Assembly: GCA_007131635.1 (NCBI GenBank)
Contig: SLQE01000063.1
Coordinates: 1 to 42,556, forward strand
Source of the DNA: Bacteroidota bacterium
GTDB taxonomy: Bacteria; Bacteroidota; Ignavibacteria; T3Sed10-11
Length of the DNA stretch: 42,556 nucleotides
Reading direction: 5' to 3'
Shown here in pieces: positions 1,157 to 25,805 of the stretch (positions are counted from its first letter, which is position 1; each line of letters starts with the position of its first letter). Position numbers and translations under genes: made by a program. Below the pieces are notes generated by a model that worked only from the letters and a program-made list of their open reading frames with translations, searched no databases and was not told the origin of the DNA.

Positions 1157-4100
1157 TTGTCTTTTAACGAATATATCAGATTAATGGGTGCACGTCTTGA
1201 AAATGTGACCGGATGTATTACAAATCCGTACAGAGTAATACATACGGTCTTTTGTTATTATAGACGGGTTTTGGTTGCAATTCCCGCAATCATACTGCTC
1301 TGTACTCTGGTTTCCTTTTCGCAAGGTCCGGGCCATTCGAACCCCGCATATCCCGATATTGTAATCCTCGACTCCGATAATCGTAGTATTACCCTTGAGT
1401 ATCGAATGAAGGATATTCATTTTGATACTGTTTCATTGGATTCCCGTGAATATACCGATATTTTATATTTTGGAGCGCAAACTCCCGAACGCGTCAATCC
1501 GGGTTTGCCTGATCTTAAATTTCGTGCGGTGACGATCGCATTGCCGTCGGCTCATAAACCGGTGATAGAAGTGATTCAAACAGATTATCGAAATGAGCGC
1601 GGTGTGAGACTCCCACCGCTGGGAGATATACGAAAAGATAATGAAGATGAACTGTACAGGACACTTGAAGGTATTGAACGATCTGCCGGGGACCACAGAC
1701 CACTCGCTGATATCCATGATATCGGAAATGTCCGCGGTGTTTATCTCGGAACACTGCATATTCACCCGATTCAACTTGCAGAAGACGGCGGAACGGTAAG
1801 AATACACAATCGTATTATTATCCGGCTATCGTTTGATACGGGCAGCTATACTACCATCGACCAACATACCTACGATGCACTCAGTACCACTGTCCTGAAC
1901 ATCGATCGCGTACCGGTCGCTCCCGAAGCACGGTTGAGATTGGAAAGTCTGAGGACTCAACCCGCTGCCCCTCAGAATAGTGTCCTCGCGGGCGGTTCAT
2001 GGTATAGAATAGATATAGAACAAGAGGGTATGTACCGGATCAATGCATCGACGCTTGAGGAAGCCGGTATCCCGGTAAATAATCTGGACCCGCGAACGAT
2101 AAAGATATACAACAACGACGGTCGAATGCTGCCGGAAAATATTGCCGATGATCGGGCGACGGACCTCGTCGAAATAGCAATATACGTGCAGGGTGAAAGT
2201 GACGGCACCTTCGGAGCAAACGATTTTATTTTATTTTACGGGACCGGTACGACTTTGTGGGATTATGATCCGGGCTCGCGTACCTATACGCATCAGTATA
2301 ATTACTACACCGATGAGAATTTATATTTCCTGACCTATGGAGGAGCTCCCGGAAAGCGAATGCAGGCCGCACCGTCAGTACAGCAGTCCGATCCTGTTCG
2401 ACCGCAATATTTTATATCGCATATTGTACATCGAAATCCTAAAATTAATTTATTAGGATCAGGCAGAGAGTGGATGGGAGAATCATTCCAACCGGGCGGT
2501 GTACAGGTGTTTACGAATATGCTGCATGGGTTTAATCCCGTGGTGTCCACCCGGTATCGTATACAGGTTGCCGCGCGCGCACCGACACAGACCCGTTTCA
2601 GGATCAGTGACCAGGGTACAAATGTCGGAACCATCAATATTGCCGGTGTCAATCTCGGAACAAATATAGGTAATTATGCTTCGCGAGCAACACCTGCCCT
2701 GCTGGCGAGATCCGGGTCATTTCCCGAGAATAGAAGTACCTTGAGACTGGAATATGATGGCGGAACACAATCAGAAGGGTTCCTTGAATGGTTTGAAATA
2801 CATTACCCGCGGCGGTTTGAAGCGAATGATGATTACCTGAAGTTCTCGGCTCCGGATACAACCGGCGTTGTGGAGTTTACCGTAAGCGGGTATTCATCTT
2901 CCCAGATAACCGCGTATGATGTTACCGATTATGCTTCGGTCATGCGTATAACAAATGCCGTTATAGAGGGAAGTGCAATTCGATTTCAGCGTCAACAAAC
3001 GGGCGGTACCCCTTCACAATATATCGCCGCATCACCGACCGGCTATTCGGTGGTGGAAAGTATTACCCCTGTTGATAATTCCAACCTGCGCGGCATAGTG
3101 TCTGGTGCGGAGTTCATAATAATATCGCCGCCCGATTTTCTCGGTGAAGCCGAACGGTTGCAACAACATCGCGAATCGTTTTTACCGAACCGACTGTCGA
3201 CAGTCGTTGTAAACGTAAACCATCTCTATAACGAGTTCTCCGGCGGCATGAATGATCCGACCGCGATACGCGACTTTTTATACCATGCCTACAATACCTG
3301 GCAGGTAAAACCGATGTACGTCCTTTTACTCGGTGCAGGTTCATTTGACTACCGCAGAGTGCTCGGACAAAGAAATAATTATATACCGTCCTGGCAGACG
3401 CAGGAATCCTTCAGTCAGATAAATACCTATACAACCGATGATTTCTTTGTGCAGTTCACTCCAAATTCGAGACGTCCGTCGCTTTCAATCGGAAGATTGA
3501 ATGCAATTAATCAGGATGATGCCCGTGTGATGATCGATAAAATTATTGATTATGAAACGGGCTCGGATTTCGGACCGTGGAGAAATTTGATTACCTATGT
3601 TGCAGACGACGGGCTTACCACGAGGGGTGGCGATGACGGAAATATACATACATGGCAGTCCGAGCAGCTTGCGCTGAGATTTACTCCGGACCCCTTTGAA
3701 AAAAATAAAATTTATATGATAGAATATCCGGCTGAAAATACCGCCCTCGGAAGAAGAATGCCGGAAGTAAACAAAACGATTGTAGATAGAATAAACAGGG
3801 GAACTCTCATATTAAACTGGACAGGACACGGTAATCCAAGGGTGTGGGCGTATGAATGGATCTTTGTCAAAGAAAATACCATACCTCAGCTTACGAACCG
3901 TGACCGTTTGACATTCATTACCGCGGCTACATGCGATTTTTCCCGCCTCGATGATCCAAGAGAACAAAGCGGAGGGGAATTGCTTGTCAGCTGGGAACGG
4001 GGAGGCGCTATAGGACTTCTTTCATCGTCACGCATTGTCTGGTCAACCGATAATGCTCAGTTTAACAATTTATTTTATACAAATCTGTTATCACAACCTC

Positions 4101-5272
4101 AAAGCGGTGTCTATCGTCGTGTGGGTGATGCACTCTTTGCAACAAAGCAATCCCGGCACAATATTAACGATACAAAATTTGTTTTACTCGGTGACCCGAC
4201 GATTAGATTACATATTCCGAGCTATAGGGCCGATGTGGAGGAAATTAACGGATTACCTTTCAGTAATGTTATAACATTAAAAGCATTACAGAAAGTAACT
4301 ATCGACGGTATTATCAGACGACCGGACGGCACGGTTAAAAATGATTTTAACGGAAGGATGTTTGTCGTCGTGTATGATTCAGACAAGGTTGTAACTATAC
4401 CGCGTTGGAACTGGTCTTTTACATCGCCGGGGAATACTCTCTTCCGGGGTGAAAGTTCGGTCACACAGGGTATGTATTCTTCAACGTTTGTGATACCAAA
4501 GGATATAAGCCATGAGGGTAGAGAGGGGCGCATTGCGCTCTATTTCTGGGATGATACATACGATGGACGTGGATTTACAAGAGATATATTTATCGGAGGA
4601 ATAGATACAACGGTCGTACCGGATACGGAGGGACCGGAAATTACAATATATCTTGAAGACAGGAATTTCCGAAGCGGAGATCTCGTAAGCGATCAACCGC
4701 TCTTGCTGGTGGATCTGTTCGATGAATCTGGAATTAATATATCCGGGGGCGGGATCGGCCATAGAATTGAAGCCTGGCTAAATGACGGAGCAGAAATAGA
4801 CCTCACCGATTATTACACCGGTGCCGTTGACAGTTACCGGGAGGGAACTATAGAATATCAGTTTGAAAATCTTGGAGCAGGTCCTCAACACCTTCTTTTA
4901 CGTGCGTGGGATGTATATAATAATTCATCGACCGGCGAGGTTTTCTTCGATGTGGCATCAGGGGAAAAACTTTCGGTACAGCAGGTTTATAATTACCCGA
5001 ATCCATTCCGGCAGGAGACCGTGTTTACATTCCAGCATAACCAGAATGTGCCTATAGACGTGAGCATAAAGGTTTATACGGTAGCCGGACGGATGATCGC
5101 CGAGCTCAATGAATACAGTGTAACCGATCGGTTCGTTCGTATTCCATGGAATGGTATCGATGCAGACGGAGACCGTATTGCAAATGGTGTCTACTTCTAC
5201 AAAGTGGTGGCACAAACAACGGACGGAGAGTTTGCGAGTGAAGTGATCGGTAGAATGGCTGTACTTAGATAG
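1157..5272 (+). CDS. porU: PorU-like T9SS C-terminal signal peptidase/sortase (gingipain-type C25 cysteine peptidase with its own T9SS C-terminal domain)
   Basis: The C25 core reads EFIIISPPDF...VVVNVNHLYNEFSGGMNDPTAIRDF...YVLLLGAGSFDYR. Catalytic His context is NWTGHGNP and catalytic Cys context is TAATCDFS. An N-terminal hydrophobic signal/anchor is present. The C-terminal about 90 aa (YNYPNPFRQETVFTF...GVYFYKVVA) fits the Por_Secre_tail type-A CTD pattern. It sits directly upstream of a PorV-family gene, as in characterised T9SS loci. The start (TTG 1157 vs ATG 1184) is uncertain. Confidence 0.85.
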   Translation: MSFNEYIRLMGARLENVTGCITNPYRVIHTVFCYYRRVLVAIPAIILLCTLVSFSQGPGHSNPAYPDIVILDSDNRSITLEYRMKDIHFDTVSLDSREYTDILYFGAQTPERVNPGLPDLKFRAVTIALPSAHKPVIEVIQTDYRNERGVRLPPLGDIRKDNEDELYRTLEGIERSAGDHRPLADIHDIGNVRGVYLGTLHIHPIQLAEDGGTVRIHNRIIIRLSFDTGSYTTIDQHTYDALSTTVLNIDRVPVAPEARLRLESLRTQPAAPQNSVLAGGSWYRIDIEQEGMYRINASTLEEAGIPVNNLDPRTIKIYNNDGRMLPENIADDRATDLVEIAIYVQGESDGTFGANDFILFYGTGTTLWDYDPGSRTYTHQYNYYTDENLYFLTYGGAPGKRMQAAPSVQQSDPVRPQYFISHIVHRNPKINLLGSGREWMGESFQPGGVQVFTNMLHGFNPVVSTRYRIQVAARAPTQTRFRISDQGTNVGTINIAGVNLGTNIGNYASRATPALLARSGSFPENRSTLRLEYDGGTQSEGFLEWFEIHYPRRFEANDDYLKFSAPDTTGVVEFTVSGYSSSQITAYDVTDYASVMRITNAVIEGSAIRFQRQQTGGTPSQYIAASPTGYSVVESITPVDNSNLRGIVSGAEFIIISPPDFLGEAERLQQHRESFLPNRLSTVVVNVNHLYNEFSGGMNDPTAIRDFLYHAYNTWQVKPMYVLLLGAGSFDYRRVLGQRNNYIPSWQTQESFSQINTYTTDDFFVQFTPNSRRPSLSIGRLNAINQDDARVMIDKIIDYETGSDFGPWRNLITYVADDGLTTRGGDDGNIHTWQSEQLALRFTPDPFEKNKIYMIEYPAENTALGRRMPEVNKTIVDRINRGTLILNWTGHGNPRVWAYEWIFVKENTIPQLTNRDRLTFITAATCDFSRLDDPREQSGGELLVSWERGGAIGLLSSSRIVWSTDNAQFNNLFYTNLLSQPQSGVYRRVGDALFATKQSRHNINDTKFVLLGDPTIRLHIPSYRADVEEINGLPFSNVITLKALQKVTIDGIIRRPDGTVKNDFNGRMFVVVYDSDKVVTIPRWNWSFTSPGNTLFRGESSVTQGMYSSTFVIPKDISHEGREGRIALYFWDDTYDGRGFTRDIFIGGIDTTVVPDTEGPEITIYLEDRNFRSGDLVSDQPLLLVDLFDESGINISGGGIGHRIEAWLNDGAEIDLTDYYTGAVDSYREGTIEYQFENLGAGPQHLLLRAWDVYNNSSTGEVFFDVASGEKLSVQQVYNYPNPFRQETVFTFQHNQNVPIDVSIKVYTVAGRMIAELNEYSVTDRFVRIPWNGIDADGDRIANGVYFYKVVAQTTDGEFASEVIGRMAVLR

Positions 5273-5383
5273 GGGCCATTGGTGTTGATGATAAGGCAGA
5301 ATAGTTGCTATTAAAAAGAAAATAGGTTAATTTAATAAGTTATGACAGAAAATAACATAAAACGATCCAGCGGAGGTTGAATT

Positions 5384-6463
5384 ATGAGAACAATATATTC
5401 CATTATCGCAGCTCTATTGTTGATCTGTTTCATGATCAACGGACCGGCTGAAGCGCAAGGTGAGTCGGCTGTACCGTTTCTATTGATTTCACCGAATTCC
5501 CGTGCATCGGGAATGGGAGAATTCGGGACAGGTATAGCGGACGATGCCGCTGCGATTCATTGGAATCCTGCAGGGCTTGCATTTCAAAGGGGTCAGGAAA
5601 TCAGTATAACTCACACGAACTGGTTACCCCAATTTGGCATGTCCGATTTATTTTACGATTATATCAACTACAGGAACCATTTTAATTCATTGAACGGTAC
5701 ATTTGCTGCCGCAATAACATACCTGAACCTCGGAGAACACACGAGAACATCTTCACTCGGTCCCGAACCGATTGGTACCTTCAGAAGTTACGAGTTTGCC
5801 GTAACAGCGGGATATGCTACAAAGATAATGGAAAATCTGGGACTGGGTGTTAATTTACGAGTGATCCACAGTGCATTGTCCCCGATCGGTACCGAACAGG
5901 AAGAGGGTAGTGGCGTCGGTACCACCGTCGCGGGAGATATTGGCGTTCTTTATAAAACCTCTGTTTTCGATATGCCGCTTTCGCTGGGTGCGAATTTGCA
6001 AAATCTTGGCCCGAAAATCACATATATTGATGCCGCTCAGGCAGATCCGATTCCGACTAATCTGCGTGTCGGATTCGCGCTGAAACTACTTGAGAGTGAG
6101 GCAAATACGCTCACTTTAGGTGCCGACTTCAGCCGCATACTGGTACGAAGATACGAAGCACCCCCCGGGGGGGAAACTCCGCAGCCGGATCCTTTTTATA
6201 AAGCGATATTTACTGCCTGGGGAGATCAGGGTTTAAAGAAAGTTATTATATCGGGCGGGCTTGAATACTGGTATACCGATCTCATTGCGCTGCGCGCGGG
6301 GTATTTCCACGAAGAAAGAGTCGCCGGCGGACGAAAGTTTTTGACCTTCGGTGCAGGATTACGCTACGATATCTATGGATTTGACTTTAGCTATATCGCG
6401 ACGCTTGAAGAAGATCACCCGCTTTCAGATACGCTGAGATTTACGCTCTTGTTATCATGGTAA
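5384..6463 (+). CDS. porV: PorV/PorQ-family T9SS outer-membrane beta-barrel shuttle protein (PorV by position)
   Basis: Signal peptide ends ...INGPAEAQG. The family hallmark SARASGMGEFGTGIADDAAAIHWNPAGLA follows. Alternating beta-strand patterns run to the C-terminus (TLRFTLLLSW). GGAGG Shine-Dalgarno site lies 7 nt upstream. It is adjacent to the PorU-like gene. Confidence 0.85.
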   Translation: MRTIYSIIAALLLICFMINGPAEAQGESAVPFLLISPNSRASGMGEFGTGIADDAAAIHWNPAGLAFQRGQEISITHTNWLPQFGMSDLFYDYINYRNHFNSLNGTFAAAITYLNLGEHTRTSSLGPEPIGTFRSYEFAVTAGYATKIMENLGLGVNLRVIHSALSPIGTEQEEGSGVGTTVAGDIGVLYKTSVFDMPLSLGANLQNLGPKITYIDAAQADPIPTNLRVGFALKLLESEANTLTLGADFSRILVRRYEAPPGGETPQPDPFYKAIFTAWGDQGLKKVIISGGLEYWYTDLIALRAGYFHEERVAGGRKFLTFGAGLRYDIYGFDFSYIATLEEDHPLSDTLRFTLLLSW

Positions 6464-6474
6464 GATAAAAATAA

Positions 6475-9400
6475 ATGAAGTATTATCGAGCTTTTCTTTG
6501 TGCGGGTGCCGGAATTGTTTTTCTTACTTTGGGTCTGTTCGGTCAATTTTTACCTCATCCCTTGAGTATAGCCGGGGATGAGATACATTCTTATATACAA
6601 CGCCCCGATGTACCGGATACCCTTCGCACACTCGCAATTATGGTACAGTTTCAACCCGATCAGGATTCCCGTACGACAGGGAACGGACGGTTTGATTTGT
6701 CGGAAACGGATACAGATATCCTCAATCCACCCCCTCATAATGCAACATATTTTGAGTACCATCTCGAATTTGCACGCCGGTACTTTCATGAGGTCTCAGG
6801 GGAGAAGTTAACCATCGAATACACTGTATGGGATCAAATCTTTACGCTTTCTGAAGTTATGGAAGCATACAGCCCGAAAAACCCAGGAGATTTCACCGAA
6901 ATAGGAAAACTCTTCAATGAAGCTTGGCAGCTTGCTTCTGCTGAGGCACCGGATATTCCTTTTCATTCATTTGATACCTTTATTATTTTCCACGCGGGTG
7001 TAGGCCGCGATATCGATCTTACAAGCATCTATGGATTTGATCCGACTCCGCTGGATATTCCTTCGTTATACCTCGGACCCGAAGGATTGAGACGCATTTT
7101 TGGTCCGAACTATACAGGTGTGGAAGTGGGATCCGAGGGATTCCTGATCAACAATTCCATGATATTGCCCGAGACCCAAAATCGCGAGCTCGATCTCATT
7201 ACCGGCAGACAATTATTACAACTGGGTATGAACGGCCTTGTATGTGCGATGTTCGGGAGCCGGCTCGGCCTTCCGGATTTATTCAACACCGATACCGGTC
7301 GGTCGGGTATAGGAAGGTTTGGTTTAATGGATGGACAGGCGATATTTAGCTTTCTCGGACTTTTTCCGCCGGAATTATCGGCTTGGGAAAAATATTATCT
7401 CGGCTGGATCGAACCGCTGACCGTACAACCGGGTGAGCATACTCTCGAATTACCCGCTGTCGCATTACGCCAACCGGGGAGCATCCTCCGCGTACCGATC
7501 AATGAACGTGAATACTATCTTGTCGAGAATCGGCATCGAAATCCATTTGGTACGGGACAAATTCTCACACTCATACAAAACGGCGAAGAGATCACGATAA
7601 ACATCCCGCGCGACCGGAGAGGTTTTAATGCGTTTGATATTAACGACATATCAGGTATCGTACTCGATGTTGCTGTATATGACTGGAGTTTACCGGGAGG
7701 ATATGTAGAAGCGGACGATATATTCTATGATGGAGGCATCATCATCTGGCATATTGACGAACGTATTATCGACGCGCGAATTCAGGAAAACCGTATTAAC
7801 GCCGATATCGAAAATCGCGGGATTCGGGTTGTCGAAGCCGACGGGTCGCAGGATATAGGTCGCGAGTTCGGCTTCCTCCAGGCGGGACAGGGCTCCGAAG
7901 ACGGAACACAGTTCGATTTCTGGTATGAAAACAACCCCGCTCCTATTTATCAGAATCGTTTCGACCGTAATACCATACCGTCGTCAAAAAGCAACACCGG
8001 CGCACCGAGCCACGTAGCAATGTATGATTTCTCACCGCGAAACCCACGTATGCAAGTAACAGTCAGGATCGGTTCGGATGAAGTGAAACCTGTAAAAGGA
8101 TTCCCAATTCAACTGGAGTCGGCTACCCGAAATACGTCACCCGTTCCTTTTCTCGATGGTATTTTATTTGTGGACAACGGAGAGTTACGTGCAGTCGATA
8201 AAAACGGTATTATTACTCACATTCAGGATCCATACGATAAACCGGTTACCGGTACTCCGGCATGGCACGAACCGGAGGGTGAAATTGTCTTGTTTACAAG
8301 GTCCGGTAACTCAACGGTAACGAAGTGGAATATCGAATCGGCCGGTACCGGAGAACCACATGTCTTTATACCGGTTACATCCTTTGATATCGGTGGAGGC
8401 ATAACGGCAGGTCCGGTTCTGTTGGAAAACGGAGAGTGTTTGGTTGGAACCGATACCGGGGACATCATATCGATAGACGATTCGGGACAAAGGACGATAG
8501 GATCGATATCGGACGGTAGCAGTGTTATCGATCTCCACATAATCGATGAAAATCATTGGGCTGCAACCACTAAAACAAAGGTACTATATATCTCCGATGA
8601 GATGTTTGAACTGGGACTTCAGGAAGATATCTACCGAAGTGTTGCGTATTCAGACAGAGGAAGGCTTCGTATTGCTGGAATCGGAAGAAAAATTGTATTC
8701 ATTACACTTCCGGTAATTGTAGAAGAGCCGAATCAGATCGGAAGGACGATGAATAATTTTTATAGCGAAATTACCGGTACCGAAATATTCGGACAACCGA
8801 TTGCACTCGATCTCGACAAAGACGGTGTTATGGATATTTTACCGACATTTGATAATAAGTTGTATGCAATAAATCGGAGTGGTGCCGTTCTGGATTATTT
8901 CCCCGTGAAAGCCGGCGATCATCCGCTTCGGGATGTATATCCCGTAGCTGCCGATTTTGACGGTAATGGTATTATGGATGTAGCACTGAGCGATAATGAT
9001 TCCAGGATTATCTTTCACAACGGCAAAGGTGCCTCGGTCGCGGGGACACCGCTTGCGGTGGGTGAGAAAATAGTCGGCTCACCCGCTGTGTTTGAATATG
9101 ACGGTAAAATGGCGCTCGCTTTCATTACCGATGATCATGTATTGTATGCATATAGTTTTTCCGGCGATTGGTCCGGAGATCGTGTTGCGTGGGGTCAGGA
9201 ACGGTTTAACAGCCGACGGACAAACGTACAGGTTGCCACATATCCCTTAGAACCGATAAGTGAAGAGTTTCTCCCCGAAAATCGTGCCTATAACTGGCCG
9301 AATCCCGTGTATGACGGTATTACACATATTCGCTATTACCTGAGTGAACATGCCGATGTCTCGATAGATATCTATGAAATGAACGGAGATAGAGTATCGT

Positions 9401-9549
9401 CGTTCAGCGGGCCCGGTATCGGTGGTGTGGACAATGAAATAGCGTGGGATGTATCCGGTCTGCAAAGCGGTGTATACCTCGGACGGATAGAAGCCCGTGG
9501 CGAAAATAAAACCAATGTTGTTTTTATAAAGATAGCGGTGGTGAAGTAG
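6475..9549 (+). CDS. Secreted T9SS cargo-type protein: M6 (InhA-like) metalloprotease-homology domain with degenerate active site, propeller-like/FG-GAP repeats, and a T9SS C-terminal sorting domain
   Basis: Has a signal peptide. M6-domain landmarks are present: TLAIMVQFQPD, YFHEVSGEKLTI, FIIFHAGVGRD, and the segment LVCAMFGSRLGLPDLF where InhA-type enzymes have xxxHExGHxLGLPDxY. FG-GAP/Ca-binding-like repeats are present (LDLDKDGVMDILP, ADFDGNGIMDVAL, FEYDGKMALAF). The C-terminal about 85 aa (NWPNPVYDGITHIRYYL...GVYLGRIEA...IKIAVVK) fits the T9SS type-A CTD pattern. Confidence 0.7.
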   Translation: MKYYRAFLCAGAGIVFLTLGLFGQFLPHPLSIAGDEIHSYIQRPDVPDTLRTLAIMVQFQPDQDSRTTGNGRFDLSETDTDILNPPPHNATYFEYHLEFARRYFHEVSGEKLTIEYTVWDQIFTLSEVMEAYSPKNPGDFTEIGKLFNEAWQLASAEAPDIPFHSFDTFIIFHAGVGRDIDLTSIYGFDPTPLDIPSLYLGPEGLRRIFGPNYTGVEVGSEGFLINNSMILPETQNRELDLITGRQLLQLGMNGLVCAMFGSRLGLPDLFNTDTGRSGIGRFGLMDGQAIFSFLGLFPPELSAWEKYYLGWIEPLTVQPGEHTLELPAVALRQPGSILRVPINEREYYLVENRHRNPFGTGQILTLIQNGEEITINIPRDRRGFNAFDINDISGIVLDVAVYDWSLPGGYVEADDIFYDGGIIIWHIDERIIDARIQENRINADIENRGIRVVEADGSQDIGREFGFLQAGQGSEDGTQFDFWYENNPAPIYQNRFDRNTIPSSKSNTGAPSHVAMYDFSPRNPRMQVTVRIGSDEVKPVKGFPIQLESATRNTSPVPFLDGILFVDNGELRAVDKNGIITHIQDPYDKPVTGTPAWHEPEGEIVLFTRSGNSTVTKWNIESAGTGEPHVFIPVTSFDIGGGITAGPVLLENGECLVGTDTGDIISIDDSGQRTIGSISDGSSVIDLHIIDENHWAATTKTKVLYISDEMFELGLQEDIYRSVAYSDRGRLRIAGIGRKIVFITLPVIVEEPNQIGRTMNNFYSEITGTEIFGQPIALDLDKDGVMDILPTFDNKLYAINRSGAVLDYFPVKAGDHPLRDVYPVAADFDGNGIMDVALSDNDSRIIFHNGKGASVAGTPLAVGEKIVGSPAVFEYDGKMALAFITDDHVLYAYSFSGDWSGDRVAWGQERFNSRRTNVQVATYPLEPISEEFLPENRAYNWPNPVYDGITHIRYYLSEHADVSIDIYEMNGDRVSSFSGPGIGGVDNEIAWDVSGLQSGVYLGRIEARGENKTNVVFIKIAVVK

Positions 9550-9550
9550 G

Positions 9551-12500
9551 ATGGTTTTTATAATACGTTTACTGTGCAGTCTTCTCCCGGTGTTTATCCT
9601 TATAATGCCGATTACACTCTTTTCACAATGGGGTTTCCCGGAAAATCCAAAAGACGGCTGGTATACAATCGAAACCGACAACTTTTATGTGCACTACCAT
9701 GACGGTGCTGAACGCACCGGCCAACTTGCCGCAAAGATAGCGGAAGATGTTTATCTGCCGATCACATCACTTTACCGATACGAACCGTTTTCAAAAACAC
9801 ATATTGTCGTTCGCGACCATGGGGATTTTTCAAACGGCGCCGCCTTTTTCTATGACAACAAAATCGAAATATGGGCAAGTGCGTTGGATTTTGATATGCG
9901 CGGCACGAACAACTGGCTTAGAAATGTCATCGCACACGAGTTTACGCACATCGTGCAGATACAGGCATCGATGAAATTCGGTCGCAGAATCCCTGCGTTC
10001 TACATACAATGGATGGGGTATGAGGACGAACGGCGACCGGACGTTCTTTATGGATTTCCCAATATATTAGTTTCTTATCCTGTGTCCGGATTTATAGCGC
10101 CGAGCTGGTTTGCCGAAGGAACAGCGCAATTTATGCATCCCGGACTAGCATATGACTCGTGGGACTCACATCGTGACATGATACTGCGAATGTATGCTCT
10201 CGACGATAATATGCTGACATGGAACGAGATGTCGGTATTCGGAAAGACAAGCCTCGGTAACGAATCGGCTTACAATGCAGGATACTCGCTCGTGAAATAT
10301 ATAGCGACTGTATACGGTAAAGACGCACTGAGAAAAATATCGGAAGAGCTGGCATCGTTCAGTGTCGTTACTATAGATCAGGCATTCCGCCGGACACTGG
10401 GGATATCCGGAGGTAGAATTTATAACGATTGGCGAAATGCAGTGAAGAGTGATTACCATATCCGTACTGCATCGATACAAGAGAATAAAATCCGGGGAGA
10501 GTCGATCGAGGAGGAAGGGTTCGGTAATTTTAATCCGATGCATTCACCGGACGGTAAATATATAGCGTATGTATCAAATAAGGGGAGTGATTATTTCGGT
10601 CTTTCATCACTTTATGTCCGTAACCGCATAACGGGTGAGACCAAACGAATTGCTCCTAATGTCAGATCGCGAATCAGCTGGTCGCCGGAAAGCGATAAAA
10701 TATATTTCTCCCGTATTACCCGGAAAAATCCTCACTGGCAGGGATTCAGTGATCTTTTCGTTGTTGATGTTGAATCCCGTAATGTAGCCCGGCTCACGAA
10801 CGGATTACGGCTCCACGATCCCGATATTTCCCCCGACGGGAAGACTATAGCGGCTGTTATCGGATCAGACGGAACACAGAATCTTGTCTTGTACGACATC
10901 GCAGATGAGCGAATTACCTATATCACAGATCATAAGCACGGGGAGCAGGTGTATGCTCCCAGATGGTCGGTTTCCGGCGATGAAATTATATTTGCGACAT
11001 CCGAGGGGTTCAATCGTAGAATTATTGAATACTCATTTATCTCAAAAGACTTTTCTTATATCGTTGGCGGCGGGAATTTTGATGCCCGCGATCCCTCATA
11101 TTCTCCGGATGGGATATACATATATTATGCGTCCGAAAAGACCGGAATATATAATATATACAGATTTAATCGTATAAATCATGCGGATGAACGGGTTACT
11201 AATGTACTCGGCGGTGCATTTATGCCCTCGGTTAGTGAAAATATACTGGTTTATGCAGGATATGAGTCCACAGGGTATAAATTGTTTCAAATCAATGAGT
11301 TAAAAGCGGTTAATGAAAGTAAAAAGTATATAGCCGGGTCGCCTTCCTGGTTCGACGATGAGCTTCATACCGCATATAATCCCGGTATGGATGACGAGGA
11401 GATCAACTGGAATCGCATTCGAAATTACGATGACAGGGAGATACCCGGATACCCTTCCGATAACTATTCTTCCGTATTTACAAATACAATGCTCGTACCG
11501 CTTGTCAGGTTCGATAATTACATCCCTGAGAGGGGTTTTGCCGATATGATTAAACCCGGATTATATCTTATGACCCGGGATATCCTGGAGCATCACGCGT
11601 TGTTCGCGGGAGCAACTATTAACAGGAAGCTGGAGCGTGATCTATTCGGGATCTTTGAATGGAATCGCGGGCTGCCGCCTTTTTCACTATTTGGTTGGTA
11701 TCCAAGAATTTCCTTTGAGGTATATAACATAACCCGAAAAACCGATGCACGTATAGAACTGCGCGAAGACCTGAATATTGACGTCGATGTGACGTATAAT
11801 CTAACCGAGTTTAACGTAATCCTGAAAGACCATATATTTAATACTTTTAATGAGCTGGAGATATTCTATCGACATAGCCGGTATGGATACGATGTAAGCA
11901 GTTTCTTTATACCGGAAACAAACCGGCTTGTCGGTGCGTTCGGGGAGCTCTACCTGGTTGGAAATACCCTGCAGGCTCAGTTTACGCATCGAGGTATTAT
12001 TCCGACTATACAAACCGAGATCAACCCGGTCGGAAGATTCGTTCAATTAAAGTACGGTTATGAGTTTAATAAATTTAATCCGCAACTGGAATACAATGAA
12101 TCGGAAAATATCCTTTTTACCAGTTATGACAGACCGAGCTTTCACCGGGTCGAGGGAGAATGGCGGGAGCATCGGCGATTATCCCGGTACCATACTATTA
12201 GTGCCCGGCTTCGCGGCGGATCGATAATCGGTGAACAGGTTGACGATTTCTTTAATTTTTATATCGGCGGTTTAATGGGTATGCAGGGTTATCCGTTTTA
12301 TTCTCTTGGCGGAAACGAATACGGTGCTTTAAACGTAACATACAGATTTCCGCTATGGGAGGGAATAGGTTTTAGGATCGCACACGTACAATTTGAACGG
12401 TTATACGGATCCGTCTTTGCCGATGTAGGAGATGCGTGGACGGGTTCGTTCCCCGGTGTCGACGAATTGAAAAAAAATGCCGGGATCGAACTGCGGCTTG

Positions 12501-12676
12501 AATCTTTTTCGTTTTATTCATATCCCACACGAATATTTTTTAGCGCTGCGTATGGTTTCGACGAATTTACCCGGGTATTCAGGAATGAGCCGGTGACATA
12601 CGGAAAACAGTGGAATTTTTATTTTGGAATTCTTTTTGGATTTGATCTGGGAACGGGATCCTTATGGAAAAAATGA
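9551..12676 (+). CDS. Outer-membrane fusion protein: MA-clan (gluzincin-like) HExxH peptidase-like domain, TolB-like PD40 beta-propeller repeats, and an Omp85/surface-antigen-type beta-barrel
   Basis: Has a signal peptide. HEFTH is followed by WFAEGTAQF, matching the Peptidase_MA-like HExxH...EGxA pattern. Repeated PD40 signatures are present: HSPDGKYIAYVS, WSPESDKIYFS, ISPDGKTIAAV, WSVSGDEIIF, YSPDGIYIYYAS. The C-terminal about 400 aa has Omp85-barrel-like motifs (FYIGGLMGMQGYPFYSLGG, GSVFADVGDAW, AGIELRLE). The start codon lies 1 nt after the upstream stop. Confidence 0.7.
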   Translation: MVFIIRLLCSLLPVFILIMPITLFSQWGFPENPKDGWYTIETDNFYVHYHDGAERTGQLAAKIAEDVYLPITSLYRYEPFSKTHIVVRDHGDFSNGAAFFYDNKIEIWASALDFDMRGTNNWLRNVIAHEFTHIVQIQASMKFGRRIPAFYIQWMGYEDERRPDVLYGFPNILVSYPVSGFIAPSWFAEGTAQFMHPGLAYDSWDSHRDMILRMYALDDNMLTWNEMSVFGKTSLGNESAYNAGYSLVKYIATVYGKDALRKISEELASFSVVTIDQAFRRTLGISGGRIYNDWRNAVKSDYHIRTASIQENKIRGESIEEEGFGNFNPMHSPDGKYIAYVSNKGSDYFGLSSLYVRNRITGETKRIAPNVRSRISWSPESDKIYFSRITRKNPHWQGFSDLFVVDVESRNVARLTNGLRLHDPDISPDGKTIAAVIGSDGTQNLVLYDIADERITYITDHKHGEQVYAPRWSVSGDEIIFATSEGFNRRIIEYSFISKDFSYIVGGGNFDARDPSYSPDGIYIYYASEKTGIYNIYRFNRINHADERVTNVLGGAFMPSVSENILVYAGYESTGYKLFQINELKAVNESKKYIAGSPSWFDDELHTAYNPGMDDEEINWNRIRNYDDREIPGYPSDNYSSVFTNTMLVPLVRFDNYIPERGFADMIKPGLYLMTRDILEHHALFAGATINRKLERDLFGIFEWNRGLPPFSLFGWYPRISFEVYNITRKTDARIELREDLNIDVDVTYNLTEFNVILKDHIFNTFNELEIFYRHSRYGYDVSSFFIPETNRLVGAFGELYLVGNTLQAQFTHRGIIPTIQTEINPVGRFVQLKYGYEFNKFNPQLEYNESENILFTSYDRPSFHRVEGEWREHRRLSRYHTISARLRGGSIIGEQVDDFFNFYIGGLMGMQGYPFYSLGGNEYGALNVTYRFPLWEGIGFRIAHVQFERLYGSVFADVGDAWTGSFPGVDELKKNAGIELRLESFSFYSYPTRIFFSAAYGFDEFTRVFRNEPVTYGKQWNFYFGILFGFDLGTGSLWKK

Positions 12677-13572
12677 AATATATATTAATTATGTTATTGC
12701 TGCCCGCTGTTTCAATTGCGGCAGACCCGCCATGGCAGACAAACCCTGTTTACCAATCGGTGTTCGACCGGAATGTTTTACAGTATCACTCCGGTACATT
12801 TTCTGAAACGATCAATATAATTGATGATAGCTATTCAGAAAAAAATATACAAAAGAAATCACCGCTGTTGGCCGGAATTATGTCAGCTGCCGTTCCGGGA
12901 GTAGGGGAGATCTATGCCGGTTCATGGTGGCGCGGTCTCCTGCATGTAGGAATCGAAATAGGGAGCTGGGTGGCATATTTTCATTACGATGCAAAGGGAG
13001 ATGACCAGACGGCTTTATTCGAGACATATGCTAACCAACACTGGGATGTAACCAGGTACGTACAATGGTTGAACGTTTACTGGGGAGGCAGTATACACGT
13101 AAATCCAAATCATAATTTACCGCCCTGGGAACGTGTCGATTGGCAGCAAATAAATGAGTTTGAACGTACCATCTCGCAGTTCTCACACCGGCTGGAACCG
13201 TTCGGGACGCAGCAATATTATGAACTTATCGGAAAATACCCGCAATATAATCGCGGCTGGGAAGATTCACACCCGATCGGAAATTTTGAACCTGTCGAGA
13301 ATCAAATACGTGCCGAGCAGGACGCGTATTTTGATGATATAAGCGATATGTTTTCATTGTATTCGGGTAAACGCGGATATGCGAACACCCTATATGCCCG
13401 CGCGCACAATGCCGTCCTCGTGGTGTTTTTAAATCACTTTATCAGTGCGTTCCATGCTGCTTTCCTCGCGCATTCATACAACCAGGCTCATATTGCCGTC
13501 GATATCGAAAACCGCAAGGATCTTTACGGTGAACGATTTGTTCCGACGATGCGGTTGCAGGTAGAGTTTTAA
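12664..13572 (+). CDS. Hypothetical envelope protein, DUF5683-like
   Basis: Signal peptide reads MKYILIMLLLPAVSIAA. The hydrophobic motif SPLLAGIMSAAVPGVGEIYAGSWW resembles the DUF5683 signature (xSAxxPGxGQxY) as I recall it. A second hydrophobic helix lies near the C-terminus. The start overlaps the upstream stop (ATGGAAAAAATGA), which suggests translational coupling. Confidence 0.5.
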   Translation: MEKMKYILIMLLLPAVSIAADPPWQTNPVYQSVFDRNVLQYHSGTFSETINIIDDSYSEKNIQKKSPLLAGIMSAAVPGVGEIYAGSWWRGLLHVGIEIGSWVAYFHYDAKGDDQTALFETYANQHWDVTRYVQWLNVYWGGSIHVNPNHNLPPWERVDWQQINEFERTISQFSHRLEPFGTQQYYELIGKYPQYNRGWEDSHPIGNFEPVENQIRAEQDAYFDDISDMFSLYSGKRGYANTLYARAHNAVLVVFLNHFISAFHAAFLAHSYNQAHIAVDIENRKDLYGERFVPTMRLQVEF

Positions 13573-13674: not shown

Positions 13675-14763
13675 TCATTTCCGGACCCGCAATAAATTTA
13701 ACACTCCCACTCCGAAGAAAATAATATTCGGAAGCCATGCCATAAATAAGGTGTTATAATTGCCGCTTTGACCGAGTGTTTCGCTCATTGCCATCGATGC
13801 TATGTAGAGAAACGTAATGAGTACACCGACTGCAAATTGGAGTGCAAGACCTCCGCGTCGCTTCTCCGAAGAAAACGGGACTCCGAAAAGAATGACGACG
13901 AGACTCGCGAACGGGAAAGCTATTTTCCCATAGTAATCAACCTCCCATCGGGCAGTCTGTTGGCCCGCCCGCCTCTGGGATTGTATAAAATCACGGAGTT
14001 CAAAATAATCCATTTCATCCGGCTGTAGTTGTTTTCTTGCTATATCGTCCGGATTAAAAAAAAGTTTTCCCATCGGAAGTCGATCAAAAGAAGTGAGAGT
14101 TTCCGCGTCGTTTTTGAATTCACGCATCACTCCCCGGTGTAAAGTCCAGATTTTATCCTCAGGAATCCACTCCATTCTTCCTGCATCGTACCTGCGTTCG
14201 AGCACGGTGAAGTTTGTATCTGAAAATTCCTGAATACTGACCCGGGACACGGTGTTGGTAGTTTCGTCAAAAAAACCGAGTGAGAGAAAACGAACCGGAC
14301 TATCCTGGATGAAAATATTGTAACGTGCAAAGTCGGATCTGCCGCCTTTTGCGAGGTGTTCCCGCTCGATTTGATATTTTTCTTTATTTGCCGTCGGGAC
14401 AATCCACCCGTTAAAATATATCGAGGCGCAGGTAACGAATACTCCGATGGCGAGAAACGGGAGCATGAACCGGTATAAACTGACACCGCTTGCTTTTAGT
14501 GCGACAAGTTCGTTTTGATTGGAAAGCTTTCCCGTTGTAAATAAACTTGATAGCAGCATCGCGACCGGTATCATTGATTTGATCATTTCGGGTATAAAAA
14601 AGATATAGTATTGTATCACTATACCGACCGGGGCTTTTCGATCGATAAAATCGTCTACATTCTCCATCAGATCGATGATAATGAAGACCATAATGATTGC
14701 AATCAGTGCAAAGTTGAAGTGTGAAATGAATTGTTTGATTATGTAGCGATCAATCAATTTCAT
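13675..14763 (-). CDS. LptF/LptG-family LPS export permease (second gene of the pair, LptG-like by order)
   Basis: N-terminus MKLIDRYIIKQF... followed by a TM helix is the YjgP/YjgQ family hallmark. There are three N-terminal TM helices, a periplasmic beta-rich insert and three C-terminal TM helices. The ATG overlaps the upstream stop by 1 nt (TAATG). Confidence 0.85.
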   Translation of the reverse strand: MKLIDRYIIKQFISHFNFALIAIIMVFIIIDLMENVDDFIDRKAPVGIVIQYYIFFIPEMIKSMIPVAMLLSSLFTTGKLSNQNELVALKASGVSLYRFMLPFLAIGVFVTCASIYFNGWIVPTANKEKYQIEREHLAKGGRSDFARYNIFIQDSPVRFLSLGFFDETTNTVSRVSIQEFSDTNFTVLERRYDAGRMEWIPEDKIWTLHRGVMREFKNDAETLTSFDRLPMGKLFFNPDDIARKQLQPDEMDYFELRDFIQSQRRAGQQTARWEVDYYGKIAFPFASLVVILFGVPFSSEKRRGGLALQFAVGVLITFLYIASMAMSETLGQSGNYNTLFMAWLPNIIFFGVGVLNLLRVRK

Positions 14764-16175
14764 TATTGATCACCATGCACATCATTTTTGAGGGTTTCGA
14801 TACGGAATCTTTTCGGGACGATCGTTTTCAGTTTATTCCAATTTATGAGTAAACGTTCTTTTTGAGTACGGATTGTTAAATAGATACCGGCGGGGAAGAG
14901 GAGTATATTTGCACCCCACATACCGATAAATGGTGAGATGAATCCCCGATCGGCGAGTTTTTCTCCGCCGATCAGAAACGACCAGTACAGTAGGAAGAAT
15001 CCCATGCTGATACCGGTGGCGACACCAAAACCGCCTTTTCTGGTCATAATACCGAGCGGTGCGCCTATTAATATGAAAATAACACATGCTATGGGGATAG
15101 CATATTTTTTGTGTACTTCAACCATATATTGATCGATACGGCGTTCGTTGCTGCGCATCCTTCTCAGGTCGGAATCGACCGAGGATGAGAGCGCCCGTGC
15201 ACGCGCAAGCGCGAATTGAATTTTCGCACGGTCCGGATCAACTTCATAGGCCGGCAGTGTTGGGGGAAAATGTCTGAATTCGCCATACAGGAAGGACCTG
15301 TTATAAGTATCGATTGTATTAATAACTGAAATAGATGTCCGGTAATTATGAGCTCTCAGGCTATCGGCGCGTTCAAGCATAACCTGAGCACTCAATTCGC
15401 GGTCACCGCGCTGGAAAACATTGTCAGCCGTGCGTTCGAAATCGTATCCCTCATAAGGTATAAGAATTCGATGCCTGTTGAATTTAACACGTCGGTACTC
15501 ATTATTGTTTGTTTCAGTCGATATTTCGTGGATTTCGCCTTGATAAAGGTCAAGAATAAGATTTGAAAAATCAGGTCCGTATGCGATAAATCCCCTGTCA
15601 GCTGATATAAGAACATTGCTGTTCGGATCGCTATGATCGTAAATGGTCAATCCTTCGAGTTCATTGGTTTCTTCATAATTTTTTCTTGCTATTATCGTAT
15701 AACCTTTAATCTCTTGTGAGAAGATCCCCGGTTCAAGTGAAAGCGTCGGTCGTGCCCTCCGTATATCAATACCCAGTGTTTTCGCGCGGTGATTCGCATC
15801 CGGGAGCACTCTGTTGTTGAACTCCATTAAACCATACGCGAGCAGTAACGATACGATCAACGGCGCAGTTATCATTCGATAAACCGATAAACCGCTGGAT
15901 TTCATAACGGTTATTTCGTTATTGGCCGACATGCTGCCATAAGCCATTAATGTCGCTATGAGCACCGACATCGGTATAGCCAACACAAGCATCCAGGCGA
16001 GATTCATTATAATTACTTCAATCACAATGCCGATGCCAAATCCTTTTCCGACCAGATGATCGATGAATTTCATTAAAAACTGCAAAATAAAAATGCCGAT
16101 CAGTACGAATAAAGACATGAAAAAGGGGGCTATATGCGCTCTCAATATGTATCGATCAATTATCATTTTATTCAA
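14763..16175 (-). CDS. LptF/LptG-family LPS export permease (first gene of the pair, LptF-like by order) with an enlarged periplasmic domain
   Basis: N-terminus (MNK)MIIDRYILRAHIAPFF shows the same YjgP/YjgQ architecture. At 470 aa it is longer than the E. coli paralogues, owing to a longer central soluble region. It is translationally coupled to the downstream paralogue. Confidence 0.85.
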   Translation of the reverse strand: MNKMIIDRYILRAHIAPFFMSLFVLIGIFILQFLMKFIDHLVGKGFGIGIVIEVIIMNLAWMLVLAIPMSVLIATLMAYGSMSANNEITVMKSSGLSVYRMITAPLIVSLLLAYGLMEFNNRVLPDANHRAKTLGIDIRRARPTLSLEPGIFSQEIKGYTIIARKNYEETNELEGLTIYDHSDPNSNVLISADRGFIAYGPDFSNLILDLYQGEIHEISTETNNNEYRRVKFNRHRILIPYEGYDFERTADNVFQRGDRELSAQVMLERADSLRAHNYRTSISVINTIDTYNRSFLYGEFRHFPPTLPAYEVDPDRAKIQFALARARALSSSVDSDLRRMRSNERRIDQYMVEVHKKYAIPIACVIFILIGAPLGIMTRKGGFGVATGISMGFFLLYWSFLIGGEKLADRGFISPFIGMWGANILLFPAGIYLTIRTQKERLLINWNKLKTIVPKRFRIETLKNDVHGDQ

Positions 16176-16455
16176 TATACCAATATTCCATTAATCTCAC
16201 AATCACAAAATTTGTACAAGCAGAAAATCAGATTTAGTATTGCAATTAAGTTGCATTTTTCCTAATTTATTTGATTATAGACACCGGATTACACAAATAT
16301 TTTAAGGGTGACTCCACGGAAGATTGGTATAGATTAAAGAATGAATAACGAATTCCGATCCGGATTAACCGGACGGTTAAGTTAGTAAACGATTGATTGC
16401 AGTACGAGCAGTGGAAAATTCCAAGGGATCACTCTCTAAATATTTACGCCTTATT

Positions 16456-24905: not shown

Positions 24906-25805
24906 ATGGCAACAGACGCACAAACAATTCTTCAACCCGATGTTATCTCGCGGATCGAAAACCTCGAACTCCGTGCGAAGCTGGTAGTAGAAGGGTTTAT
25001 CGCCGGCTTACATCGCAGCCCGTATCATGGATTCAGCGTCGAGTTTGCCGAACACCGACAATACATGCCCGGCGACGATATCAGGCATATCGACTGGAAA
25101 GTGCTTGGCAGAACCGATCGATATTATATTAAGCAGTATGAAGAAGAGACAAATTTAAAAACATATCTTGTTATCGATGCAAGCCGCTCGATGGCATTCC
25201 AGACCGAAAAGCATCCTACTAAATTCGAGTATGCAACATCCGTCGCGGCGGCGCTCGCCTATTTAATGGTGAGACAGAGAGACGCTGTGGGGCTGGGCAT
25301 CTATGATGAGAGCATCCGGACATTTCTGCCTCCGCGCTCAAAACAATCCTACCTCAAAATACTTTTTAAAACTTTACTTGAAACCCGGCCCGGTAAAAAA
25401 ACCGGTACCGGGATTTCACTTCATAGAATGGCCGAACGAATCAAACGAAGAGGACTGGTAATCATATTCAGTGATTTGTTCGATAATCCGGACGAGGTTC
25501 TCGGAGCGCTGAAGCATTTCCGACACAACCGGAACGAAGTTATAGTTATGCAGGTGCTCGATCCGTCGGAACGGTCGTTCGCATTCGGAAGAGATGCAGT
25601 TTTTAAAGACATGGAAACCGGGGAAAAAATGACCACGCAGCCATACCAGATCCAAAAAGCATACCAGTATGAAATGCGCCGCTTCCTCGACCGGTACAAG
25701 CGGGAATGCCGGGAGCAGGCAGTCGATTACGTTCTGCTCGACACCGCCACGCCGTTTGACGTCGCGTTGTTTCAGTATTTGAATAAACGCAAAAAATTAG
25801 GATAA
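24906..25805 (+). CDS. DUF58 (vWA-like, MoxR-associated family) protein
   Basis: Hallmark SPYHGFSVEFAEHRQYMPGDDIRHIDWKV is followed by a vWA-like LVIDASRSM segment and a later IFSD segment. Confidence 0.8.
   Translation: MATDAQTILQPDVISRIENLELRAKLVVEGFIAGLHRSPYHGFSVEFAEHRQYMPGDDIRHIDWKVLGRTDRYYIKQYEEETNLKTYLVIDASRSMAFQTEKHPTKFEYATSVAAALAYLMVRQRDAVGLGIYDESIRTFLPPRSKQSYLKILFKTLLETRPGKKTGTGISLHRMAERIKRRGLVIIFSDLFDNPDEVLGALKHFRHNRNEVIVMQVLDPSERSFAFGRDAVFKDMETGEKMTTQPYQIQKAYQYEMRRFLDRYKRECREQAVDYVLLDTATPFDVALFQYLNKRKKLG

Follow-up and report, generated by a model that had tools for sequence, protein, structure and literature searches.

How type IX secretion systems (T9SS) work has been learned almost entirely from Porphyromonas and Flavobacterium. 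How the cargo-handling end of this system is built in other lineages is the question raised by a 42,556-nt contig (SLQE01000063.1, assembly GCA_007131635.1; "the window" hereafter means this whole stretch) from a Bacteroidota bacterium of the Ignavibacteria, in which the sortase gene porU and the carrier gene porV are followed on the same strand by three further envelope genes, here called genes 3, 4 and 5. A first interpretation made from the letters and open reading frames (ORFs) of the window (the sequence-only reading) had proposed genes 3–5 as lineage-specific substitutes or accessories of the T9SS attachment machinery. Gene 3 was found to encode an M6-like metalloprotease homologue predicted to be inactive (M6i), gene 4 a fusion of a predicted zinc peptidase, a TolB-like propeller and a putative Omp85-type barrel, and gene 5 a small DUF5683-related protein. 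This trio stays beside porV in at least five bacterial lineages, and it is therefore probably an undescribed T9SS accessory. With moderate confidence, we favour the interpretation that genes 3–5 constitute a T9SS-coupled accessory envelope module.

Gene order of the porU-porV operon

The five same-strand ORFs and the spacing given for them in the sequence-only reading were reproduced exactly from the ORF list: gaps of 111, 11 and 1 nt separate porU, porV, gene 3 and gene 4, and genes 4 and 5 overlap by 13 nt. All five products showed an N-terminal hydrophobic segment resembling a signal peptide. porU, porV and genes 3–5 form a single operon, in which gene 5 is probably translationally coupled to gene 4. 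A scan for consensus promoters and terminators detected no terminator in the intergenic gaps, but the scan counts were no higher than the shuffled expectation, hence this result is uninformative.

The first two genes were identified as proposed. For gene 1, the product passed the PorU equivalog model NF033707 (1033 bits, cut-off 420) and showed a Peptidase_C25 domain (PF01364) at aa 653–1018 (E 5e-90), the catalytic His and Cys contexts GHG at aa 890 and TCDF at aa 925, and a C-terminal sorting domain (CTD) of its own at aa 1280–1353 (TIGR04183, 31 bits, cut-off 23). For gene 2, the product passed the PorV model NF033710 (263 bits, cut-off 250), matched PF19572 (E 9e-33) and contained the hallmark motif quoted earlier, starting at aa 43; it scored below the cut-offs of the other carrier models (PorQ, 87.5 bits vs. 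220; PorV2, 40 bits vs. 325).

A scan of a genome collection with gene 4 gave 80 loci (42–83% identity), all of them Ignavibacteria-like, the closest relatives (83% identity) being Ignavibacteriales metagenome-assembled genomes from soda-lake sediments. In all 62 Ignavibacteria loci with enough flank, gene 4 was shown to adjoin a T9SS core gene, and in 54 of these porU, porV and M6i were located directly upstream of it. A gene 5 homologue followed gene 4 immediately in 58 of 69 loci. The median gaps inside the block were 6 nt between porV and M6i, 30 nt between M6i and gene 4, and 9 nt between genes 4 and 5. The flanks of the block varied, with at least seven unrelated gene families on each side, the annotated ones being housekeeping genes (HD, AhpC, Der, upp, RelA). 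Because the flanks are shuffled while the internal spacing is tight, the five-gene block itself is the conserved unit. The arrangement of genes 3–5 with porU and porV is far beyond chance, and the comparison of related genomes that had been suggested as a check thus tied the three genes to porU and porV by a very strong conserved order.

To cover more distant relatives, the gene 4 barrel region (aa 600–1041) was used in an exhaustive HMMER search against 1.84 billion representatives of 50%-identity clusters. The barrel subfamily was found to be small (381 clusters at E ≤ 1e-3, 83 at E ≤ 1e-30), with full-length members of 950–1185 aa. The neighbourhoods of 12 remote representatives, with 26–37% identity in the barrel region, were compared. 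In 11 of the 12, the order of a gene in the M6i position, a gene-4-like gene and a DUF5683-like gene was kept, with one or two genes between them in three loci. The upstream neighbour was approximately 890–1070 aa long, and its homology to M6i was confirmed in 10 of 11 cases (NF052323, 232–1327 bits; phmmer, E 1e-26 to 1e-136). The downstream neighbour was a gene 5 homologue in all nine loci checked (phmmer, E 1e-8 to 1e-25). Besides, a PorV-family gene was found immediately upstream of M6i in all eight remote loci with enough flank; a PorU/C25 gene preceded porV in three of these and was not adjacent in the other five. The names of cluster members placed eight of the remote clusters: five in Fidelibacter multiformis or Marinimicrobia and one each in Calditrichota, KSB1 and Rhodothermales. 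The GC content of the remote loci ranged from 35 to 56%.

The conserved core thus consists of porV, M6i, the peptidase-TolB-Omp85 gene and the DUF5683-like gene, often with porU ahead, and is present in several lineages of the Fibrobacteres–Chlorobi–Bacteroidetes (FCB) group. Since the order recurs across these lineages, the module is not specific to Ignavibacteria, and the lineage specificity assumed for genes 3–5 in the sequence-only reading did not hold. Phylogenetic inertia or chance, without any functional link, might also account for the clustering, and as the loci of the first scan were all Ignavibacteria-like, their gene order could be shared by descent. However, the block persists although its flanks are shuffled, and the same order was found at the low identities and over the wide range of GC contents seen in the remote loci. 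Shuffled flanks and recurrence in remote lineages together effectively refute this explanation, which we regard as extremely improbable.

Some variation was observed within and around the block. In locus L005 (699–1358), and at the same position in L006–L012, all of one clade, an extra ORF of approximately 218 aa lies between M6i and gene 4; it showed a weak CarboxypepD_reg-like match and belonged to no NCBIfam family. The translocon gene sprA was found as the direct divergent neighbour of gene 4 in L054, L055, L057, L058, L060, L061, L065, L073, and L075 (at about 3100–13100 in each), and in L057 and L065 a gene 5 homologue is located three genes past sprA. In some of the remote loci (L082 and the P0485 locus), the first propeller-Omp85 gene is followed, after a few genes, by a second one; the one in L082 (14775–17144) is shorter (789 aa) and has a clear PF01103 match. 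In the P0485 locus, the gene that was assigned as M6i by position alone is preceded by two PorV genes in tandem. In Marinimicrobia/Fidelibacter-type loci, a gene for a BamD/YfiO-like tetratricopeptide repeat (TPR) lipoprotein directly follows the DUF5683-like gene (L084, 13812–14564; L086, 13838–14632; L092, 6561–7316).

Products of genes 3, 4 and 5

By its profile score, gene 3 is a member of an already modelled NCBIfam family, NF052323, named "T9SS-dependent M6-like inactivated metalloprotease" (840.5 bits, above the equivalog cut-off of 600); the orthologue from Ignavibacterium album reached 1159 bits and covered the full model. At the position of the M6 HExxH site, gene 3 reads CAMFGSRLGLPD, where CAMFG-S replaces HExxH ahead of the conserved LGLPD. 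No HE..H was found anywhere in the gene 3 sequence, no conserved H/E/H was present at the M6 active-site position in an alignment of 46 gene 3 sequences, and none of the eight distant M6i homologues examined contained HExxH. In the AlphaFold2 model of gene 3 (pLDDT 83.9), a mixed domain at the N-terminus is followed by one propeller and, at the C-terminus, a beta-sandwich. The best Foldseek matches were eight-bladed propellers (Cake8, TMt 0.79; Tako8, 0.77) and BamB. The CTD was scored above cut-off by PF18962 (29.2 bits, cut-off 27) and TIGR04183 (23.8 bits, cut-off 23). It showed 26% identity to the CTD of PorU, a generic resemblance that is therefore uninformative on whether the CTD is retained.

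PorZ binds anionic lipopolysaccharide (LPS), passes it to PorU and retains its own CTD. The PorZ profile NF052228 did not match gene 3 at E ≤ 0.01, and the CTD of PorU alone touched this model. When the gene 3 model was compared with the PorZ structure (5M11), as had been suggested, the match ranked sixth by E-value in Foldseek (E 3.5e-12) with TM-scores of 0.10/0.13; this is a generic propeller-plus-CTD similarity. The Foldseek runs were made with the whole models of genes 3 and 4 and were dominated by propeller matches, and a PDB sequence search with the profiles of both genes likewise gave propellers only, with no Omp85, M6 or PorZ entry. Gene 3 as a PorZ homologue was ruled out by the missing NF052228 match, the M6-like half and the single eight-bladed propeller. 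Of the earlier description of gene 3, the CTD and the propeller or FG-GAP repeats were thus retained, and both are present in the model, but the PorZ-like architecture had to be given up: the M6-like half had been missed and there is one propeller, not two.

Gene 4 was found to contain a candidate zinc site, HEFTH at aa 129–133 (nt 9935–9949), with E189 in WFAEG as the probable third ligand. H129, E130, H133, and E189 were invariant in 49 orthologues; among the full-length relatives from the exhaustive search, HExxH was present in all 57 and W[FL]xEG followed approximately 57 residues later in 54. The active site of the peptidase is, on this conservation, intact and strictly conserved, and the peptidase is predicted to be active. 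Judged from the sequences compared, the two protease folds of the module are under opposite selection, gene 4 being always active-looking and M6i always dead. TolB was the top match of gene 4 both in the PDB sequence search and in Foldseek, and gene 4 also matched the propeller-gated peptidase families DPP-IV, tricorn, and prolyl oligopeptidase. A common architecture was seen in the sampled remote relatives, with Peptidase_MA_2 in all nine and PD40 in eight.

In the AlphaFold2 model of gene 4, no POTRA-like element was present in the linker between propeller and barrel (aa 582–646). A long L6-like loop at aa 894–922, of the pattern GGxxGx[R/K/Q]GY, carries the invariant motif GGxxGxxGYPxY and lies, by count, between barrel strands 11 and 12, which we take to be the position of the conserved L6 loop of Omp85 proteins with its (V/I)RG(F/Y) motif. 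A barrel motif GGxxGx[R/K]GY was present in 46 of the 57 full-length relatives. The Omp85 family PF01103 gave no match on the gene 4 protein of the window, and the isolated barrel had no Pfam match even at E ≤ 10; among 44 orthologues, PF01103 matched three (best E 1.6e-6). The models of the PorV/PorQ family, including NF033711 and NF033709, did not match gene 4 either. Gene 4 as a PorQ-like protein was ruled out, as no model of that family matches and its barrel of approximately 16 strands appears to be of Omp85 type rather than of PorV/FadL type. The description of gene 4 as an Omp85-type barrel protein probably holds for the C-terminal approximately 40%, but it had missed the HExxH peptidase and the TolB-like propeller in the first approximately 580 residues.

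In the WD40-like Omp85 subfamily, a barrel resembling BamA/TamA is combined with an aminopeptidase-like and a TolB-like WD40 domain (Heinz and Lithgow, 2014; PMC4104836), and Phyre matches of this family to BamA/TamA are tabulated in the same paper. By its architecture, gene 4 belongs to this catalogued class. According to the UniProt accessions as read, the tables hold members from Ignavibacterium album, Melioribacter roseus, Rhodothermus, Salinibacter, Chlorobi, and Cytophagia, and Bacteroidia and Flavobacteriia, the classes with the model organisms, are missing from the lists (PMC4104836). No functional study of the class was found in the literature.

Gene 5 encodes a hydrophobic hairpin (aa ~66–105) and ends in ...RLQVEF. 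Its match to PF18935 (DUF5683) reached 17.8 bits, below the gathering cut-off of 26.7, and covered profile positions 2–31 only. A precomputed PF18935 match was present in 63 of the 120 gene 5 homologues listed, none of which was functionally named, and the DUF5683-like neighbours in the remote loci L081 and L092 also carried this match. Because its own score is below the cut-off yet its homologues often match, gene 5 is considered related to DUF5683 but divergent, in agreement with its earlier designation as DUF5683-like.

With the three products described, the substitution idea of the sequence-only reading can be weighed in its strict form. In this form, lineages presumed to lack PorZ and PorQ would use M6i as PorZ, delivering the anchor glycolipid to PorU, and an extra barrel or PorV copy as PorQ, and the trio would be an alternative attachment complex. 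Like PorZ, M6i has a propeller and a CTD, and it is M6i, among all CTD proteins, whose gene comes right after porV; the tandem PorV genes of the P0485 locus would be consistent with separate carriers for PorU and M6i. Besides, the PorZ and PorQ models were reached by none of the scanned ORFs of the window (42.5 kb) or of the neighbouring flanks of the relatives examined, in line with the earlier statement that no clear porZ or porQ is present here. However, gene 3 neither matches NF052228 nor superimposes on 5M11, the barrel of gene 4 is not of PorV/PorQ type, PorU is not adjacent in five of the eight remote loci with flank, and the need of an anchor-delivery complex for an active zinc peptidase would be unexplained. 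Strict substitution is thus considered unlikely.

A putative T9SS-coupled accessory module

Type-A CTD proteins are exported through SprA on PorV, and the CTD proteins PorU and PorZ stay docked on PorV-family barrels (PMC5562754, PMC8545088, PMC12365241). As these two proteins remain docked, it is reasonable to see in M6i, by analogy, a putative partner that resides with PorV at the surface, rather than one more cargo. In the favoured interpretation of genes 3–5 as a T9SS-coupled module, M6i would be exported through SprA on PorV and would remain on the surface in contact with a PorV-family barrel, as PorU and PorZ do, and may serve there as a non-catalytic binding platform. The Omp85-peptidase encoded by gene 4 would be located in the same membrane patch, its propeller-gated peptidase facing the periplasm by the default Omp85 topology, and gene 5 may encode a small subunit of it. 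The peptidase could then trim or clear unfolded polypeptide of the T9SS traffic, for instance cargo that has stalled or sorting-domain fragments left behind. This would resemble the role of BepA, a protease that acts at an Omp85 machine, BAM (beta-barrel assembly machinery), and that is the closest working analogy for gene 4 (PMC13478230). Far less confidence attaches to the specific quality-control mechanism than to the assignment of the three genes to a T9SS-coupled module.

Several observations weigh against this interpretation. In 8 of the 62 Ignavibacteria loci, all from one subclade, gene 4 was found head-to-head with sprA and apart from M6i and porU-porV. The remote relative P0492 (L087, 10001–12970), a protein of 989 aa that retains HExxH, is encoded on its own amid housekeeping genes; within 9 kb of it there is no gene of the T9SS, M6i or DUF5683 kind, and the coupling of gene 4 to T9SS genes is therefore not absolute. 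The substrate of gene 4 is speculative, because a periplasm-facing peptidase cannot reach CTDs that are cleaved by PorU at the surface. No such component is present among the known T9SS parts of P. gingivalis or F. johnsoniae, including the extended translocon. Contact between the proteins, like a physical complex, its topology, its substrates and its effect on secretion, is what we infer. Anaeromyxobacter, Geobacter, and Vibrio are, to our knowledge, without a T9SS, and the tables of the WD40-like Omp85 class, by accessions as read, also hold members from these three genera (PMC4104836).

The last of these observations, together with the stand-alone P0492, would suit a self-contained protease system of the surface or outer membrane that merely uses the T9SS. 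M6i would then be an abundant, ordinary type-A cargo that partners the Omp85-peptidase, the latter perhaps being surface-displayed in the fashion of type Vd/PlpD for peptide or nutrient processing, and the linkage to porV would reflect dependence on export. Active enzyme/pseudo-enzyme pairs are common, and the propeller-gated peptidases of the families matched by gene 4 (DPP-IV, tricorn, and prolyl oligopeptidase) typically degrade peptides, both of which fit such a system. Surface display was also raised by Heinz and Lithgow for the Omp85-metalloprotease ("Metallo") subfamily by analogy with PlpD, a patatin-like Omp85 (PMC4104836). On the other hand, among many CTD cargoes M6i alone has kept its place right behind porV in several FCB lineages, gene 4 adjoins the translocon gene sprA when it is apart from M6i, and the POTRA and passenger-linker features of the PlpD kind are missing from gene 4. 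An autonomous protease system of this kind is accordingly rated as a doubtful explanation.

Another explanation starts from the barrel. Gene 4 might be a dedicated BAM-like factor, uniting BamA, BamB and BepA in one chain, for the assembly or quality control of the T9SS barrels SprA (36 strands) and PorV. The putative Omp85 barrel with its L6-like motif, the place beside porV or sprA in each of the 62 loci with sufficient flank and the BamD/YfiO-like gene after the module in Marinimicrobia loci are consistent with this, as is the likeness to a BamA-BamB fusion, of which the WD40-like Omp85 class was called reminiscent by Heinz and Lithgow (PMC4104836). However, such a role would leave unexplained why the secreted M6i and DUF5683-like proteins are invariant partners of gene 4, SprA and PorV are assembled without such a factor in the model T9SS organisms, and gene 4 has no POTRA domains. 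We consider this role clearly less probable than either strict substitution or an autonomous protease.

Beyond the favoured interpretation of an accessory module, the trio might even be an integral T9SS sub-complex of the non-model FCB lineages (Ignavibacteria, Rhodothermales, Marinimicrobia/Fidelibacterota, Calditrichota, and KSB1), forming with PorV and PorU an alternative or ancestral post-translocation station in place of, or predating, PorZ and PorQ; this extension is tentative and rather unlikely. The families involved (PorU, PorV, NF052323, WD40-like Omp85, and DUF5683) are already catalogued, and no description of the linkage between the trio and porV was found in the literature on the T9SS of Ignavibacteria or Fidelibacter, or on Omp85 or M6 proteins with the T9SS. 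If the trio were such an integral sub-complex, an Omp85-family protein with an active zinc peptidase would be a T9SS component, and the WD40-like Omp85 class, so far an orphan, would obtain a first function. A module tied this firmly to porV in other FCB lineages would also show that, beyond the model organisms, the end of the system that handles cargo is constructed in a different way. The genomic context leads to hypotheses that can be tested for two orphan families, namely the WD40-like Omp85 proteins, which were catalogued in 2014 with no function, and the M6-like inactivated metalloproteases, and the pairing of a conserved active peptidase with a conserved dead one is an attractive enzyme/pseudo-enzyme case at the outer membrane.

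Surrounding genes and comparison with known systems

The features identified in the window are listed in Table 1. As listed, the porU ORF opens at a TTG. Because an ATG is present at codon 10 and a signal-like hydrophobic stretch at aa ~36–55, this TTG appears to be too far upstream, and the true start of porU is probably located downstream of it. Neither gene 1 nor gene 2 reached the cut-offs of the NCBIfam PorU2 and PorV2 models. The NCBIfam models NF052323 (M6i), NF052324, and NF052325 are numbered consecutively and include a "putative PorU2" and a "putative PorV2" model, and this numbering hints that the curators had come across a second pair of sortase and carrier in related genomes. No genuine literature on PorU2/PorV2 was found.

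Table 1. Coordinates of the T9SS-related genes and their domains in the 42,556-nt window.
Feature	Position	Strand	Support
porU (gene 1), T9SS C25-type sortase with its own CTD	1157..5272	+	NF033707, PF01364
porV (gene 2), outer-membrane carrier/shuttle barrel for type-A CTD cargo	5384..6463	+	NF033710, PF19572
Gene 3 (M6i), T9SS-exported M6-like metalloprotease homologue, predicted catalytically dead, with signal peptide	6475..9549	+	NF052323
Gene 3, N-terminal M6-like domain, aa ~43–553	6601..8133	+	TIGR03296 E 1.4e-12
Gene 3, eight-bladed beta-propeller, FG-GAP-like, aa ~555–930	8137..9264	+	Foldseek; PF13517 E 0.0034
Gene 3, type-A C-terminal sorting domain, aa 941–1022	9295..9540	+	PF18962, TIGR04183
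Gene 4, WD40-like Omp85 protein (peptidase + propeller + barrel) with signal peptide	9551..12676	+	AlphaFold2 model, pLDDT 75.7
Gene 4, MA-clan (gluzincin) zinc peptidase domain, aa ~38–310	9662..10480	+	PF13485 E 3.5e-7
Gene 4, TolB-like beta-propeller, aa ~317–581	10499..11293	+	PD40 E 3e-13, TIGR02800 E 1.4e-22
Gene 4, C-terminal barrel, putatively of Omp85 type, ~16 strands, aa ~647–1029	11489..12637	+	DSSP strand pattern on AlphaFold2 model
Gene 5, small DUF5683-related envelope protein with signal peptide	12664..13572	+	PF18935 E 0.0035
sprA/sov, T9SS translocon, 2294 aa	16393..23277	+	TIGR04189 1155 bits

The translocon gene sprA/sov is located 2.8 kb downstream of the operon, with the LPS-export permease genes lptG and lptF on the opposite strand in between (13675–23277 for the three genes), and the remaining genes of the window are housekeeping genes. 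Close relatives and the clade L007–L012 share the lptG-lptF-sprA layout, and Ignavibacterium-type loci do not. With 470 aa, LptF is unusually long, and its hidden Markov model match is split into two stretches. A T9SS-wide gene island was rejected, since the flanks are housekeeping and the adjacency of lptFG and sprA is confined to some clades. An ORF of 299 aa (24906–25805) lies between a pyridoxal phosphate-dependent decarboxylase gene and the psd/pssA pair and had no NCBIfam match.

Compared with the attachment complex of P. gingivalis (PorU-PorV-PorZ-PorQ), the operon shares canonical PorU and PorV and a CTD-bearing propeller protein, M6i, that is encoded alongside, and all parts belong to the outer membrane or surface. 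In contrast, the operon contains no PorZ or PorQ homologue, and the P. gingivalis complex has no counterpart to the Omp85-type barrel of gene 4 with its predicted active zinc peptidase. PorZ is built from two seven-bladed propellers followed by a CTD (PDB 5M11), whereas M6i consists of a putatively dead M6 half, one eight-bladed propeller and a CTD. As in NF052323, gene 3 scores above the equivalog cut-off, has lost HExxH and carries a type-A sorting domain; the name of that model records T9SS-dependent export only and states no role or partner.

The domain make-up of gene 4, with its barrel taken as Omp85-type, is exactly the one catalogued for the WD40-like Omp85 proteins, in which an aminopeptidase-like and a TolB-like WD40 domain are joined to an Omp85 barrel and POTRA is absent (PMC4104836). 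That paper gives neither function nor gene context, whereas the sub-branch of 381 clusters described here is coupled to porV, M6i and a DUF5683-like gene. With the type Vd protein PlpD, gene 4 shares an enzyme domain located N-terminal to an Omp85-type barrel, but PlpD has POTRA and a patatin passenger, while POTRA is missing from gene 4, whose passenger would comprise a peptidase plus propeller of 600 residues. In E. coli, BAM and BepA likewise bring an HExxH zinc protease to the periplasmic face of an Omp85 machine that includes a propeller (BamB). There, each part is a protein of its own, BepA being an M48 peptidase with TPR repeats, whereas gene 4 is one chain with a peptidase of another family and is linked to the T9SS rather than to general outer-membrane protein assembly.

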